NCBI GenBank assembly: GCA_045863475.1
Contig: BTUR01000001.1
Location: 184,978 to 248,977 of the forward strand
Origin: Candidatus Campbellbacteria bacterium
GTDB taxonomy: Bacteria; Patescibacteriota; Minisyncoccia; Phycocordibacterales; EsbW-18
Direction: 5' to 3'
Length of the DNA: 64,000 nucleotides
A model generated the notes under the pieces. That model did no database searches, was not told the origin of the DNA, and saw only the letters and a program-made list of their open reading frames with translations. Positions 30,982 through 38,000 of the stretch are shown piece after piece. Within the stretch, counting starts at the first letter, position 1. Each line of letters opens with the position of its first letter. Both the position numbers and the translations under genes were made by a program.

Positions 30982-31740
30982 TTACATTTTTTTCTCCACC
31001 GAACTTTTCTTTAAACTCTTCCACACAATCTCAAAAATCTCGCGCATCGTCTTTGTAATCGCCGGGTTCTCAATCACTAATCCTTGTAAATTAAGCGGAT
31101 CAAAAAATCGCACAAACGTCGGACCAATCTCTACGGCAATGTCCGACGAGTATTCTCCTGCAGGTGCTTCAACAAATTCGCGTCCATACTCGATATCTTT
31201 TGCCCGAAATTCTTTCAAAGAAGGATCTTTCGGAGCGATACCTTGCATTCGCACCCCTCTGTTTTTCAACTCTTCGTTGTATTCCTCATATCCGCCGAAT
31301 ATTTTCATAACCTCAGGCGATGTTTTGGCATAGAAACCTTTTACAATTCCTCCCTCAAGAGAATCCAGACCGTACCGCAAAACTTCTTTCGCACCCTCAG
31401 CACCGTCAAAAAACAGCACTTGCGGTTTTTCGGTACCAACTTTCTCCAACGCCTTGATTTCCGGAAGCGCCCGCTCAACCTGTTCCAACCTTTCACGCGC
31501 CTTTTCAATCAGGTTTTCCGGCGATATCGCACGATAGAGCCTCTTTTTTGTACGTGGAACCAAAACCGCCGCTCCTTTGCGTACAAGCTCGTTAAGAATC
31601 ACATATGCCGTCGGACGTTTAAGCCCGCTGACAACCGCCACGGAGTACGCAGATGTCGTCCCGCGCTTCAAAAGAGCAAGGTATACCGCCGCCTCTTTCT
31701 CGGAAAACCCCAAGCGTTGTATAAGCTCCTGAAATTCCAT
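30982..31740 (-). CDS. TrmB-family winged-helix transcriptional regulator
   Basis: N-terminus LGFSEKEAAVYLALLKRGTTSAYSVAVVSGLKRPTAYVILNELVRKG is TrmB-like HTH, followed by a C-terminal effector-like domain. Confidence 0.55.
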   Translation of the reverse strand: MEFQELIQRLGFSEKEAAVYLALLKRGTTSAYSVAVVSGLKRPTAYVILNELVRKGAAVLVPRTKKRLYRAISPENLIEKARERLEQVERALPEIKALEKVGTEKPQVLFFDGAEGAKEVLRYGLDSLEGGIVKGFYAKTSPEVMKIFGGYEEYNEELKNRGVRMQGIAPKDPSLKEFRAKDIEYGREFVEAPAGEYSSDIAVEIGPTFVRFFDPLNLQGLVIENPAITKTMREIFEIVWKSLKKSSVEKKM

Positions 31741-31949
31741 ACATGGGCAGTATATACGCAACAGAAATAATAGTCAATATTTTTGACAACCTAAAGTGAT
31801 GGACGCATTAAAACCTTATTCTCAGGCGTTTTTTGACGTTTCACTGCACTATTTTTAGTCATAGTATTTGACATTTTATTCAAACCCATGTACACTGTGT
31901 CCAGATGATGAGCAATAAAGCTCATCGAGATCTTTGAGGAGACACTCTC

Positions 31950-32432
31950 ATGTATATCGAGGTCATCGGTGACACTCGGAACGGCGGAGATGTTTGGGCT
32001 GAAGTGGTAATCGGCGAGTGGAGCGGCAAGCCCCACCTCGATTCCGAACAAGCCACCATCTTCTACACCCCACTCTCAGAGCCGGTCCGGCAGGTTCTCG
32101 ATTCGCTTGGTCACAAGCACATCGAGGCCTTCGAGCATCTCTTCCTGCAACTCTTCCGCGCAGGCATGGATGCCGAGCATGATTGTCCTGAGATTATTCA
32201 AAATATTCGGGACATCTGGGAGCTCGACGCCGAGCAAGAGCGAGAGAGGCTCTGGCAAGAGGAGCACCGGGCCGGAATTGAGTACTGGGGCTCTAGGGGA
32301 CCAAACACCATCGAAAAGGACGAGCTGCTCGGAAAACAAATCTGGCAGGGACTCTCGATTGATGGTGGTGGTAACGAGGAGACGGCCCAGGAGTCCGCGG
32401 AGGACTCAGAAACAGAACCTCCGAAGCCGTGA
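31950..32432 (+). CDS. hypothetical acidic protein
   Basis: 160-aa ORF with high GC. Confidence 0.35.
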   Translation: MYIEVIGDTRNGGDVWAEVVIGEWSGKPHLDSEQATIFYTPLSEPVRQVLDSLGHKHIEAFEHLFLQLFRAGMDAEHDCPEIIQNIRDIWELDAEQERERLWQEEHRAGIEYWGSRGPNTIEKDELLGKQIWQGLSIDGGGNEETAQESAEDSETEPPKP

Positions 32433-32487: not shown

Positions 32488-32892
32488 CTAAAGGACATTC
32501 TCAATGACACCTATTCTGGCAGTTTTGTCCTTTAGATTTAACTTTACCGTAACCACGTCCAGTTGGAATTTTGTTTCACGTGGAACATCCTTATCTACCA
32601 GGTAGGTTTGAATTACCCGTGAAAGCCGCTTGAGCTTTTCACGTGTAACATGTTCCTCTGGTCTTATTTGATTTGTTTCACGTGAAACATTACTTGTTTC
32701 TGTTTCCCATGAAACACACTTTACCTCAACAAAGTGAACTACGGATTCTTTGCAAGCAACAACATCCAACTCACCCCATTTTCTAAGATAATTTCTTTCA
32801 ATTATTGAAAAACCCTGTTTCATGAGAAACCGGACAGCCAGATCTTCCCCGATTCTTCCTATTTTTGATGTTTTTGTACCTAATTGTTTCAC
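32488..32892 (-). CDS. YraN/UPF0102-family predicted endonuclease, with a repeat-derived insertion
   Basis: GEDLAVRFLMKQGFSIIERNYLRKWGELDVVACKESVVHFVEVK is the YraN core. The ORF also contains multiple GTTTCACGTGAAAC-type palindromes that encode a low-complexity insert. Confidence 0.55.
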   Translation of the reverse strand: MKQLGTKTSKIGRIGEDLAVRFLMKQGFSIIERNYLRKWGELDVVACKESVVHFVEVKCVSWETETSNVSRETNQIRPEEHVTREKLKRLSRVIQTYLVDKDVPRETKFQLDVVTVKLNLKDKTARIGVIENVL

Positions 32893-33265
32893 GTGAAACT
32901 ATATTTTATAAAAAGCCTTATTTTATAACGTTTTTCATAAACTAAAGGACTTCAAGGACTGGTGTCTTTTACACATATCCCCGTTGTTATCCCCATTTTA
33001 GTGTTGAAAAATAAAGTTTTCTTAAAGACTTTCCTTGCTGTCTTTTTCATCTGATGTTCAAAATTGATTTCTTAGAGGCCTTGCCACTAAGTGCTTAGTG
33101 GCGAGACCTCTTGGGTACAACTTGGAAAAAAGTGTATATACGCTATACTCCAAAGCGTGCTGAAAGCACACTTGCGGGCATATGCGGTAGGTAGCATATG
33201 TCGCTGCGTTTGGAAAAGATGGGACTGAAGATCTCCAATCTTCATTCCGCCTTATTCCTCATTTG

Positions 33266-33336
33266 CGGGCATGGTTTAGTGGTAGAACACGTCCTTGCCA
33301 AGGACGAGACGGGAGTCCGATTCTCCCTGCCCGCAC
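33266..33336 (+). tRNA. tRNA-Gly (anticodon GCC)
   Basis: GCGGGCA...CGTCC-TTGCCAA-GGACG...GGGAG-TCCGATT-CTCCC-TGCCCGC-A, followed by CCA at 33337-33339. Confidence 0.8.
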
Positions 33337-33361
33337 CAAGTTGGTTACCCAAAATACTACC

Positions 33362-33386
33362 GTAGTGTGCTCCCGGAGGGATTCGG
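33362..33386. repeat. duplicated tRNA-Arg 3'-end fragment (direct repeat of 33481-33500)
   Basis: TGTGCTCCCGGAGGGATTCG occurs at both sites; the intervening 95 nt contains further T-arm-like debris (GGCTTTCGAATCCCTCC). Confidence 0.5.
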
Positions 33387-33482
33387 TCACAGATACTTTT
33401 CTGCTGAAAAGTCCTTCGACCCCGCCTCGCACCGTCGTGCTCCGGCTTTCGAATCCCTCCGAAAACATCGTATTACAATTTG

Positions 33483-33554
33483 TGCTCCCGGAGGGATTCG
33501 AACCCCCAACAACAGGTTCGAAGCCTGTCGTGATATCCATTTCACCACGGGAGC
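33483..33554 (-). tRNA. tRNA-Arg (anticodon UCG)
   Basis: Reverse complement gives GCTCCCG-TG-GTGAAATGGATATCAC-GACAGG-CTTCGAA-CCTGT-TGTTG-GGGGG-TTCGAAT-CCCTC-CGGGAGC-A. Confidence 0.7.
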
Positions 33555-33620: not shown

Positions 33621-35084
33621 ATGAAACCCATCCCTAAAGAAGTTCGCGGCGTTGTCGCACTGCTTCAGCACGGAGGCTACGAGGCATACCTTGTCGGCGG
33701 ATGTGTTCGGGACATCTACCTCAACCGAACACCCAAAGACTGGGACGTGACGACAAACGCAACGCCGGAGCAAATCCAGGCGGTTTTTCCGCACACGTTC
33801 TATGAAAATGATTTTGGAACCGTTGGTGTGGTCAACGACGACACGGAAGACCCGACACTAAAAAATATTGAGGTAACACCGTACCGAAAAGAAGGGAAGT
33901 ACACCGACAAACGCCGCCCTGACGAGGTTGTCTTCGGCGCAACGCTTGCAGAAGACCTCGCGCGTCGCGACTTCACCGTCAACGCACTTGCGTACGACCC
34001 CGCAACGGAGACACTGGTTGACCTCTACGACGGGGAAGAGGATCTCGCAAAGGGAGTTATTCGCGCGGTGGGCAATCCTGATGAACGTTTTGAGGAAGAT
34101 GCACTGCGATTGCTGCGTGCCGTGCGCCTTGCAACCGAACTTTCCTTCGAGATCGAAGAAAAAACGGCAACCGCCATCAAGCAACGCGCAAAAAACCTCG
34201 GTGAGATTTCCGGCGAGCGCATTCGCGAAGAACTCAGCAAAATTCTTATGTCTGACGCGCCGTTCCGTGGCCTGGAAATTCTCCATGAACACGGACTGCT
34301 CCGTTTTGTCGTTCCCGAACTCTCCGAAGGAGTCGGCGTGGGTCAGAATCAGGCCCATTCTTTCACGGTTTTTGAGCACATCGGTCGCACCGTGCAGGCG
34401 GCGGCGGATAAAAAGTTTCCGCTTGAAGTCCGGCTCGCGTGTCTCTTCCATGACATTGCAAAACCGCACACAAAAGCGATGGATACGAAGAAAAACGACT
34501 GGTCATTCCACGGGCACGAGGTTGTCGGAAGCCGTATCGCACGAAAACGCCTCCAGGAACTCCGATTTTCCAACGATGTCATTGATACGGTGATAAAACT
34601 TGTGCGTTGGCACATGTTTTTCTCCGACACTGAGCAAATCACGCACTCCGCGGTGCGCCGGCTCATACGAAACGTCGGACGGGAGAACGTGGAAAACATT
34701 TTAAACGTCCGCATCTGCGATCGCATCGGCACCGGACGTCCGAAAGAGCAGCCGTACCGGCTCCGCAAGTACAAAGCAATGATTGATGAGGTGATGCGCG
34801 ACCCGGTGTCCGTCTCGATGCTTGCAATTGACGGCCGCGGACTCATGCAACTGCTTGATGAGAAACCCGGACCGCGCGTGGGGTGGATTTTGCACGCACT
34901 CTTAGAAGATGTGCTTGATGATCCGACACGCAACGAGCTCTCCTATTTGGAAAAACGCGCGTTTGAACTCGCCGGTATGCCTGAAAAAGAACTGCGCGCA
35001 CTCGGTGAAAAGGGAAAGGACGCACGTGAAGAAGCGGAGGAAAAGGAAGTCAAAAAGATCCGCTCAAAGCACCACGTGCAGTAG
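33621..35084 (+). CDS. cca: CCA-adding enzyme / poly(A) polymerase-family tRNA nucleotidyltransferase with an HD domain
   Basis: GGCVRD...DWD nucleotidyltransferase head, the RDFTVNAL motif, and HD-domain motifs HSFTVFEH and LFHDIAKP. Confidence 0.85.
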   Translation: MKPIPKEVRGVVALLQHGGYEAYLVGGCVRDIYLNRTPKDWDVTTNATPEQIQAVFPHTFYENDFGTVGVVNDDTEDPTLKNIEVTPYRKEGKYTDKRRPDEVVFGATLAEDLARRDFTVNALAYDPATETLVDLYDGEEDLAKGVIRAVGNPDERFEEDALRLLRAVRLATELSFEIEEKTATAIKQRAKNLGEISGERIREELSKILMSDAPFRGLEILHEHGLLRFVVPELSEGVGVGQNQAHSFTVFEHIGRTVQAAADKKFPLEVRLACLFHDIAKPHTKAMDTKKNDWSFHGHEVVGSRIARKRLQELRFSNDVIDTVIKLVRWHMFFSDTEQITHSAVRRLIRNVGRENVENILNVRICDRIGTGRPKEQPYRLRKYKAMIDEVMRDPVSVSMLAIDGRGLMQLLDEKPGPRVGWILHALLEDVLDDPTRNELSYLEKRAFELAGMPEKELRALGEKGKDAREEAEEKEVKKIRSKHHVQ

Positions 35085-37073: not shown

Positions 37074-37100
37074 CCCCTCACACGAGGGGTTTTATTTTTT
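37074..37100. terminator. bidirectional rho-independent terminator
   Basis: CCCCTCACACGAGGGG with an A-run on one side and a T-run on the other; serves the ncRNA on + and the Xer gene on -. Confidence 0.6.
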
Positions 37101-38000
37101 CCCGTGAAAGTTTTTATGCACGTCGCGCAGGTGTTTGTCGGTGACGTGCGTGTAAATCTGCGTCGTCGTGATGTTCGCGTGACCTAAGAGCGCCTGCACC
37201 GAACGCAGATCCGCGCCGTTTTCCAGCAAGTCGGTGGCAAACGAGTGACGCACGACGTGCGGTGTTACTTTTTTTGAAATACCCGCTTTCACGGCGTACC
37301 GTTTCACGAGGCGTTCGACAGAACGTGCAGATAACCGCAAATCTGAACGGCTTTTTGAGGACGGCCCCGCCTGTACAAACATCGCATCATCAAGATCGGC
37401 ACGCTTTGCAAGATAACTTTCAACCGCGGCGCGTGCGGTGGGGGAGACAAACACGACACGCACCTTATCTCCCTTGCCACGAATGGAGAATTCTCCGCGC
37501 GAAAGATCAATATCGCGCGGCAACGACACGAGTTCAGAAACGCGCATGCCGGTGGAGAACAAGAGTGCAAGAATCGCGCGGTCGCGCAGGGCAGTCAGTG
37601 AGTCGCCCTCGGGTGCACGCATGAGACGTGCAAGTTCTGAGGACGTAATGAGATCCAAATCGCGGTCACCGACTTTCGCAAGTTCAATCGCCTCCGGCTG
37701 AAGACTCTCTACGCCGCGTTTGCGCAAAAATTTCAGAAATGCGCGCAGTGCGATGAGATAGTAGTTCTGCGTTTTCTTCTTCAGCGTCTCGCCGCTTTTT
37801 CCTCCGGCATCCTGACGGTTCAGCCACAGGCGGAACTCACGCACCACCGTCTCAGTGATGTCCTTCGGTTTCGAGACTTTGGAGAAGGTGATGAAGCGGG
37901 AGAGGTACCGGTCGTAATTTTCAACCGTCTTCAGCGAGCGGCCGCGCTCGATTTCAAGATACTCGAGGAATTCGCGCTTGAGTGTTTCAACATCTTTCAT
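37092..38000 (-). CDS. xerC: tyrosine recombinase, XerC/XerD family
   Basis: N-terminal SAM-like domain (LEYLEIERGRSLKTVENYDRYL) and the catalytic region ...HVVRHSFATDLLENGADLRSVQALLGHANITTTQIYTHV with R...HxxR...Y. Confidence 0.85.
   Translation of the reverse strand: MKDVETLKREFLEYLEIERGRSLKTVENYDRYLSRFITFSKVSKPKDITETVVREFRLWLNRQDAGGKSGETLKKKTQNYYLIALRAFLKFLRKRGVESLQPEAIELAKVGDRDLDLITSSELARLMRAPEGDSLTALRDRAILALLFSTGMRVSELVSLPRDIDLSRGEFSIRGKGDKVRVVFVSPTARAAVESYLAKRADLDDAMFVQAGPSSKSRSDLRLSARSVERLVKRYAVKAGISKKVTPHVVRHSFATDLLENGADLRSVQALLGHANITTTQIYTHVTDKHLRDVHKNFHGKK

Follow-up and report, generated by a model that had tools for sequence, protein, structure and literature searches.

Where chromosomal parS sites, at which the partition protein ParB/Spo0J nucleates, are clustered in other bacteria, the clusters extend from kilobases up to hundreds of kilobases in the vicinity of oriC and parAB. 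The centromere of plasmid F, sopC, consists of twelve 43-bp repeats, each with a 16-bp inverted repeat, and the Noc-binding sites (NBS) of Firmicutes, whose consensus ATTTCCCGGGAAAT differs from parS at specificity positions, are scattered around the chromosome except near the terminus. The Spo0J/parS system of B. subtilis was reportedly described by Lin and Grossman in 1998, and a survey of parS is said to have followed from Livny et al. in 2007. Counts of clustered parS sites range from 5 in C. crescentus and 10 in C. glutamicum to 21 in S. coelicolor and 22 in M. xanthus, and the consensus sequences tabulated with them are TGTTNCACGTGAAACA for B. subtilis and C. glutamicum, GTTTCACGTGAAAC for M. 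smegmatis, TGTTTCACGTGAAACA for H. neptunium and AGTTTCACGTGAAACT for S. pneumoniae (PMC7022226). Here we analysed a 64,000-nt stretch of DNA, called the window below, from a Candidatus Campbellbacteria bacterium (assembly GCA_045863475.1, contig BTUR01000001.1, positions 184,978 to 248,977), in which six palindromes lie within and across the start of a single gene, yraN. We propose, with a probability of roughly 85%, that these palindromes form a chromosomal parS array, that is, a bacterial centromere.

Six parS-type palindromes at one gene

Matches to the 14-mer GTTTCACGTGAAAC were called at up to two mismatches unless stated otherwise. The exact 14-mer occurs twice in the window, at 32675-32688 and 32886-32899, and four further copies carry one mismatch (start 32573) or two (starts 32636, 32702 and 32817). 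All six lie within 327 bp (32572-32900) at a spacing of 27-115 bp, and no further copy was found elsewhere in the 64-kb window. A preliminary description of this DNA had reported the perfect palindrome twice, with near-copies clustered at yraN. Our search bears this out, with the perfect copies displaced by 1 nt. The near-copies placed at about 32577, 32640 and 32706 are real, those positions being the CACGTG-type cores of copies that start at 32573, 32636 and 32702, and the five copies counted then are joined by a sixth at 32817-32830 that had been missed.

Chance was estimated from 100 dinucleotide shuffles of the window. Six sites were observed against 0.49 ± 0.67 expected; none of the 100 shuffles reached six, and the exact 14-mer never appeared in them. 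The clustering of the sites is well established by these numbers. At the three-mismatch level, six extra matches were scattered across the window, which is the chance expectation. A separate repeat search recovered the identical six-copy family (D1) and detected no similarity between copies beyond 16 bp.

The 14-mer is the core of canonical parS, tGTTNCACGTGAAACa, and the identity of the motif is plain from the individual sites, which we lettered A to F: site C agrees with this consensus at 16/16 positions and site F at 15/16, and site A corresponds to TGTTNCACGTGAAACA with N = C. The full-text literature matches to GTTTCACGTGAAAC, among those listed, came from ParB/parS or from related Noc and oriC-prediction work. 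The pooled sites gave tGTTTCACGTGAAACa, in which GTTTC/GAAAC at the outer ends hardly varies, while differences fall at position 4/11, the known tolerated N, and in the centre. The CACGTG core had previously been read as a possible operator of a dimeric regulator; the motif is instead canonical parS, the centromere site of ParB.

The host gene, yraN (32488..32892, minus strand; 405 bp, 134 aa), encodes a UPF0102 protein with a PD-(D/E)xK nuclease fold (Pfam PF02021). Five copies are inside its coding sequence, and the sixth, site F (32885..32900, TGTTTCACGTGAAACT), with an exact 14-mer core, overlaps the GTG start codon at 32892-32890. This GTG is the sole possible start: an in-frame TAG lies three codons upstream, and the invariance of the N-terminal residues G12, G15 and E16 excludes a downstream start. 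The upstream copy, formerly placed about 5 nt before the gene, thus contains the start codon itself. Site F is read in the second allowed frame, as (F-H)-V/M-K-Q, and its equivalent in the closest relative, locus L002, is found at offset -7. Site C (32674..32689, TGTTTCACGTGAAACA) is a perfect 16-bp palindrome that codes for V69-S-R-E-T73 in a low-confidence loop of YraN; in a DNA alignment of the window (WIN) with L002, L003 and L005 it is invariant, third codon positions included. Site A (32572..32587, minus strand TGTTCCACGTGAAACA), 15/16 to the perfect palindrome, codes for V103-P-R-E-T107. Sites C, F and A, each with no more than one core mismatch, would be where nucleation is strong.

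The remaining three sites carry two mismatches each. Site B (32635..32650, minus strand TGTTACACGTGAAAAG) codes for V82-T-R-E-K86, overlapping the invariant Lys86, and would probably be functional because one of its mismatches falls at the tolerated N position. Site D (32701..32716, TGTTTCCCATGAAACA) has both mismatches in its centre and codes for V60-S-W-E-T64. Site E (32816..32831, TGTTTCATGAGAAACC), with two core mismatches in the central CACGTG, codes for F22-L-M-K-Q26; it is probably weak or degenerate, and its position (+60/63) holds a site in 37 related genes. Their CACGTG centre being degenerate, sites D and E would probably be weak, if they bind at all.

Four copies (A, B, C and D) are in frame 0 and two (E and F) in the +1 frame. 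The third frame of the palindrome contains TGA on either strand, leaving V-S-R-E-T and F-H-V-K as the only possible translations. This restriction to two translatable frames accounts for the recurrent VSxET-type peptides and for a lineage-specific disordered loop of YraN.

Conservation at the DNA level across Patescibacteria

For comparison, one genome per GTDB species was scanned, yielding 80 loci that encode relatives of the window YraN (41-82% identity), all from metagenome-assembled genomes (MAGs) of Patescibacteria type. Together with the window these made 81 genomes, in which the flanks were sampled to 10 kb on either side of yraN (20 kb per locus, more than 1 Mb in total). The density of parS-like sites was highest, at 7.2/kb, over the 150 bp that precede yraN; it was 4.3/kb in the coding sequence and 1.4/kb at -500 to -1500, inside the neighbouring gene cca, and fell to 0.004-0.015/kb beyond 3.5 kb upstream or 1.5 kb downstream. 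Density at yraN was about 1000-fold above that beyond 3.5 kb. All 49 perfect 14-mers were located between -500 and +420 of yraN, 41 perfect sites lay in non-coding DNA within 150 bp upstream of the gene in relatives, and in 63 of the 81 loci a site with at most one mismatch was present in the 350 bp upstream. In L002 all six sites occupy the positions that they have in the window. In the four-sequence alignment, the sites stand out as invariant blocks, including third codon positions, among variable flanking codons.

The codon test compared these counts with those obtained when synonymous codons were resampled in each gene, with usage taken from that gene's own locus. For yraN (81 genes), 146 sites were observed against 12.9 expected at up to two mismatches (11-fold) and 56 against 2.4 at up to one (23-fold). 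The same excess was seen for cca, with 124 sites against 12.6 and 42 against 1.6, respectively. The large surplus of observed over resampled sites in both genes indicates selection on the DNA and not on the protein, so that conservation across species demonstrably exceeds coding constraint. The cca sites of relatives (-500 to -2500) mostly read V-S-x-(E/V)-T, and the whole array in relatives, comprising cca, tRNAs and yraN, covers about 3 kb. No parS-like site was found in the cca gene of the window (33621-35084), where the sites were lost or never present. AT-rich relatives, such as L016 (at -3152 to -2324 from yraN) and L075, have a cca with several parS-like sites, and many cca sites of relatives fall at an N-terminal motif, V-S-H-V-T.

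These counts bear directly on the idea that VSxET is a repeat of the YraN protein, and the palindromes a by-product of conserved residues and AT-rich codons. The pattern VSxET...VSxET is indeed conserved among Patescibacteria YraN proteins, and four of the six copies share one frame. However, the 11- and 23-fold excess over synonymous resampling refutes protein repeat plus codon bias as an explanation. Two copies in the other frame and the many sites in non-coding DNA, among them the 41 perfect ones upstream of yraN in relatives, cannot be accounted for by a protein repeat, the motif recurs in the unrelated Cca protein, and the peptides lie in a loop with a predicted local distance difference test (pLDDT) score below 50. 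We consider this explanation hardly conceivable.

The structure of YraN agrees with a loop added to a conserved fold. The protein scored 68.5 bits against PF02021 (cut-off 23.6) and matched many NCBIfam YraN models, all below their equivalog cut-offs, which marks it as a divergent subfamily. The database record of the exact protein is a hypothetical protein, and Candidatus Campbellbacteria belong to the Parcubacteria group of the Patescibacteria, or Candidate Phyla Radiation (CPR). Residues D43, E56 and K58, the catalytic D...E-x-K, are invariant in the family alignment. An AlphaFold2 model built from 85 homologues reached a mean pLDDT of 84, and its best match in the PDB was the UPF0102 structure 3FOV (TM score 0.81, target-normalised; root-mean-square deviation 2.4 Å), followed by Hjc, HincII and SPARDA-type PD-(D/E)xK nucleases. 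Residues 62-77 (WETETSNVSRETNQIR) form the only internal low-confidence stretch, with pLDDT below 50 at 64-74. Sequence similarity to 3FOV stops at residue 59, and over this region YraN exceeds the family models by some 14-22 residues. Together, the low pLDDT, the end of similarity and the extra length indicate a real lineage-specific loop. The low-complexity insert VSWETETSNVSRETNQIRPEEHVTRE proposed earlier was translated correctly, but the part that behaves as an insert loop is limited to residues 62-77: HVTREK is conserved core, holding the family-invariant K86. The AT content of yraN is higher than that of the surrounding DNA in 93% of the 81 loci (mean -4.3 G+C points); the window yraN, at -14 points, falls in the lowest 0.5% of same-length windows. 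Together with its 372-bp upstream spacer it has 38% G+C, against 53% for the window.

The palindromes might also belong to a mobile mini-repeat, similar to repetitive extragenic palindromic (REP) elements or miniature inverted-repeat transposable elements (MITEs), or regulate the yraN mRNA as RNA hairpins. Hairpin formation is open to short palindromes, and any two of the copies are mutually complementary (inverted repeats I1-I16). Against this, no dispersed copies exist in the window outside 32572-32900 or in more than 1 Mb of relatives' flanks, where the background is about 0.004/kb; no unit is shared beyond 16 bp, and the sites occupy orthologous positions, at homologous codons, across species. 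On this basis a REP or MITE was rejected. As for hairpins, palindromy is kept in just 21/220 two-mismatch sites, and mismatches that are mostly uncompensated argue that sequence, and not hairpin potential, is conserved. We therefore regard a mobile repeat or a hairpin as extremely unlikely. The preliminary description had left the choice between an operator array and a mini-repeat that invaded the reading frame; DNA-level elements within the reading frame that shape a lineage-specific loop were a correct part of it, and their identity is parS. The motif is also not a generic abundant one, being absent elsewhere in the window and from the relatives' flanks, and relatives keep the palindromes.

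Partition proteins, the origin and competing binders

If the array is a centromere, ParB dimers would recognise the 16-bp palindromes through helix-turn-helix (HTH) domains. They would then shut into clamps in a CTP-dependent manner and slide away onto the flanking DNA. A partition complex would form, on which ParA, and usually also SMC, would act to segregate the newly replicated chromosome. The clamp and partition-complex steps are established knowledge for ParABS systems.

ParB, ParA and DnaA were sought by regular expressions, by tblastn with Spo0J, Soj and DnaA queries, and by Pfam scans. Metagenome contigs were additionally scanned for GERRxRA in AT-rich codons, which gave 113 ParB candidates. 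When five unusual candidates were looked up by exact sequence, 4/5 were named ParB/RepB/Spo0J partition proteins, from Candidatus Paceibacterota/Minisyncoccales, the Patescibacteria group (two) and Dojkabacteria, and the fifth clustered with a Doudnabacteria protein that has a ParB-like N-terminal domain. When homologues of the Paceibacterota protein P0241 were searched for, 120 proteins carrying ParB_N and HTH_ParB domains were retrieved. The named matches were all from Paceibacterota, Pacebacteria, Parcubacteria or Minisyncoccales, except for a single unclassified 'bacterium' and four records under the name 'Candidatus Pacearchaeota archaeon', which are probably mislabelled. A Soj/ParA homologue is located directly upstream of parB in L118 and L196. 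By these sequence criteria, the class to which the window organism belongs has the canonical ParB machinery.

Other candidates came up in these searches. A 'Patescibacteria' ParB, P0212, recovered with a consensus ParB query that otherwise found mostly Bacillota-type ParBs, was not used, its contig, which has 63% G+C and encodes LarB, LarC and DUF4446, being probably mis-binned. L082 (GCA_050260175.1, JBLNBS010000073.1) encodes a 'Patescibacteria group bacterium' ParB on a 63% G+C contig that also carries a ParA-family gene, LarB, LarC, DUF4446 and bactofilin; this parB has two parS sites in its 3' end, and the contig was probably mis-binned from another phylum. Among other ParB loci, 13/73 had parS in the retrieved DNA, and the lack of parS near CPR parB genes is hence uninformative.

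Several observations weigh against the array being a centromere. The 64-kb window contains neither parB nor parA, nor do the 10 kb on either side of yraN in the 80 relatives, and the evidence for ParB holds at the level of the class, not for the window genome or Campbellbacteria specifically. The gene dnaA is absent from the window and from the 10-kb flanks in 78/80 relatives; only in L025 and L028 does it lie 7.7-7.9 kb from yraN, and these two cases speak for a centromere. The window showed no DnaA-box cluster (11 boxes at up to one mismatch versus 9 expected) and no turn in GC skew, giving no sign there of the closeness to the origin that is typical of parS, and an oriC in the window was rejected for these reasons and for the lack of dnaA. 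Half of the sites (3/6), having two core mismatches, may not bind. Finally, six sites in 327 bp are far denser than the chromosomal parS arrangements tabulated in PMC7022226.

The sites could instead serve a ParB-family paralogue outside segregation, of the Noc-like or the KorB/transcription-silencing type, or a canonical ParB that mainly gates expression of yraN and the tRNAs. The array does cover a start codon, no origin is demonstrably near, and many proteins with the ParB-CTPase fold are orphans without a part in segregation (PMC12704722). Yet in the class a Soj/ParA gene immediately precedes canonical parB, and no other parS-like cluster was found in the 20 kb around yraN of relatives or in the 64-kb window. 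The sequence, moreover, is that of parS and not of the Noc site. We judge such a role unlikely.

A transcription factor controlling yraN, for example the TrmB-like regulator encoded nearby (30982-31761, minus strand; 730 bp away), might bind cooperatively at the promoter and at intragenic sites. Palindromes suit dimeric regulators, and the start codon, with the presumed promoter, is overlapped by one perfect site. The TrmB-like gene, however, is found in only 21/80 related loci, where its distance varies and it may lie on either side, and the insertion that carries it here is lacking in L002. The motif is 16/16 identical to parS, its sites in relatives run through the coding sequences of both yraN and cca, and it occurs at no other promoter in the 64 kb. 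An operator array thus appears very unlikely, and the TrmB-like neighbour, suggested before as the binder, was rejected on synteny and on comparison of the tRNA clusters.

Taken together, the sequence evidence supports reading the palindromes as a conserved, unusually dense, intragenic parS centromere array. We infer that the ParB of the window organism binds these sites and that the array would serve as the main centromere of the chromosome. ParB bound at site F, which spans the start codon and presumed promoter, may also lower yraN expression. A bolder extension, which we consider doubtful, is that the centromere has been written into coding sequence and has reshaped proteins: the YraN loop (VSxET...VSxET) and the V-S-x-(E/V)-T of Cca might exist to accommodate parS, ParB on the yraN start codon might couple expression of the putative nuclease to the segregation cycle, and yraN, the tRNAs and cca might form a fixed Paceibacteria centromere locus, apart from parAB and, in most genomes, from dnaA.

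Gene neighbourhood and comparison with described systems

The array belongs to a conserved cluster with the order cca, tRNA-Arg(TCG), tRNA-Gly(GCC), yraN, tRNA-Pro and tRNA-Gly(TCC). In the window, the conserved neighbours on the upstream side of yraN are tRNA-Gly(GCC) (33265-33338, plus strand), tRNA-Arg(TCG) (33482-33554, minus strand) and cca (33621-35084, plus strand), which encodes the CCA-adding enzyme, is divergent from yraN and is present in 67/80 related loci. The spacer between yraN and tRNA-Gly(GCC) (32893..33264; 38% G+C) corresponds to the region that holds most perfect parS sites in relatives. Genes for a XerC/D-type tyrosine recombinase (37092-38000, minus strand, in the window) and for exonuclease III are often found beyond cca, in 47/80 and 52/80 loci. 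On the other side, an orphan open reading frame (31950-32432, plus strand; 160 aa, 57% G+C, acidic tail) had no Pfam or NCBIfam match and no homologue in the 80 relatives. Together with the TrmB-like gene it resembles a lineage-specific insertion (30982-32432) between yraN and tRNA-Pro; in L002, L003 and others without it, tRNA-Pro directly follows yraN. The rest of the window holds housekeeping genes, encoding ribosomal proteins, EF-Tu, NusA, trigger factor, ClpP, RNase Y, PNPase, ComM and UvrD. Gene orientation switches at about 19.8-20.6 kb, from mostly minus at 0-19 kb (ribosomal proteins, EF-Tu) to mostly plus at 20-64 kb (NusA onward); lacking a GC-skew turn or a DnaA-box cluster, this switch marks no obvious origin.

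An Rfam scan of the region returned tRNAs only. Just 3' of tRNA-Arg(TCG) we observed an RNA-like element of about 65 nt with two hairpins (33375-33460, minus strand), assigned to no Rfam family, with a fold of -54.7 kcal/mol (z = -7.0). It had 13 further nhmmer matches in 12 related loci (e.g. L013:9481-9555, L002:9145-9263 and L076:9699-9766), usually beside tRNA-Arg or at the far end of cca, and 11 of the 20 pairs in its consensus fold show compensatory double changes. A direct repeat (33366-33385 and 33481-33500) places a second copy of the final 20 nt of tRNA-Arg(TCG) at a distance of 115 bp, and an inverted copy of the tRNA-Arg T-arm (33448-33461) lies between the repeats. Together these form a 12-17-bp stem enclosing the RNA-like element; the arrangement could be a scar of rearrangement or integration, or part of the element. 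In the yraN/tRNA-Gly spacer, an 18-bp near-perfect hairpin (33074-33111; AGAGGCCTTGCCACTAAG / CTTAGTGGCGAGACCTCT) gave z = -4.9 and -6.4 for the two strands. Without a T-run it is not a canonical terminator, and blastn of the relatives found no copy of it.

Full-text searches for parS linked to yraN or Patescibacteria, or for ParB/parS in CPR, returned nothing relevant. While the parS sequence and the presumed mechanism are textbook, no description of a Patescibacteria parS or of a yraN-cca centromere array was found in the literature searched. If our assignment is correct, yraN, the tRNAs and cca would provide a concrete conserved centromere locus for the almost wholly uncultured CPR/Patescibacteria, which could give studies of how chromosomes are organised in MAGs a fixed point and help as a landmark for contig ordering. 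The yraN fragment would offer a defined DNA for biochemical tests with a CPR ParB. The recurrent VSRET/FHVK peptides would be a clean case of a DNA-level function dictating amino-acid sequence, and the 'low-complexity insert' annotated in these YraN proteins would be a centromere passenger and not a functional protein motif.

Of the systems with which the locus can be compared, the TrmB-family operators resemble it in having a palindrome for a dimeric HTH protein, with a TrmB-like gene nearby. Their sequence and spacing are different, the glycolytic motif of Thermococcales being TATCAC-N5-GTGATA, and the TrmB-like neighbour is not co-conserved with the window sites. The NBS share a 16-bp palindrome for a ParB-family CTPase and a related half-site (tTTTCcc / tGTTTCAC), whereas the strong window sites are of the parS type and only the degenerate site D, with a TTTCCC half, drifts toward NBS. 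Plasmid centromere arrays have in common with the locus the dense short inverted repeats that nucleate a ParB-type protein. They are non-coding, tandem and plasmid-specific, unlike the window array, which is chromosomal, irregular and coding and uses the universal chromosomal parS.

The closest systems are the chromosomal parS sites of ParABS, which share the 16-bp palindrome, the tolerated N variation and the presence of canonical ParB and Soj/ParA in the lineage. They often lie inside coding sequences, as in the window, and the parS inside B. subtilis spo0J reads V-P-R-E-T as well. As in the clustered arrays, several copies in one chromosomal region would jointly act as the centromere, here at 27-115 bp spacing in the window and over about 3 kb for the whole array in relatives. 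In contrast to described ParABS parS sites, the window array comprises six sites in 327 bp at one 405-bp gene that is not beside parAB, and it is conserved at orthologous codons over a whole class of the CPR, where it appears to shape the host protein.

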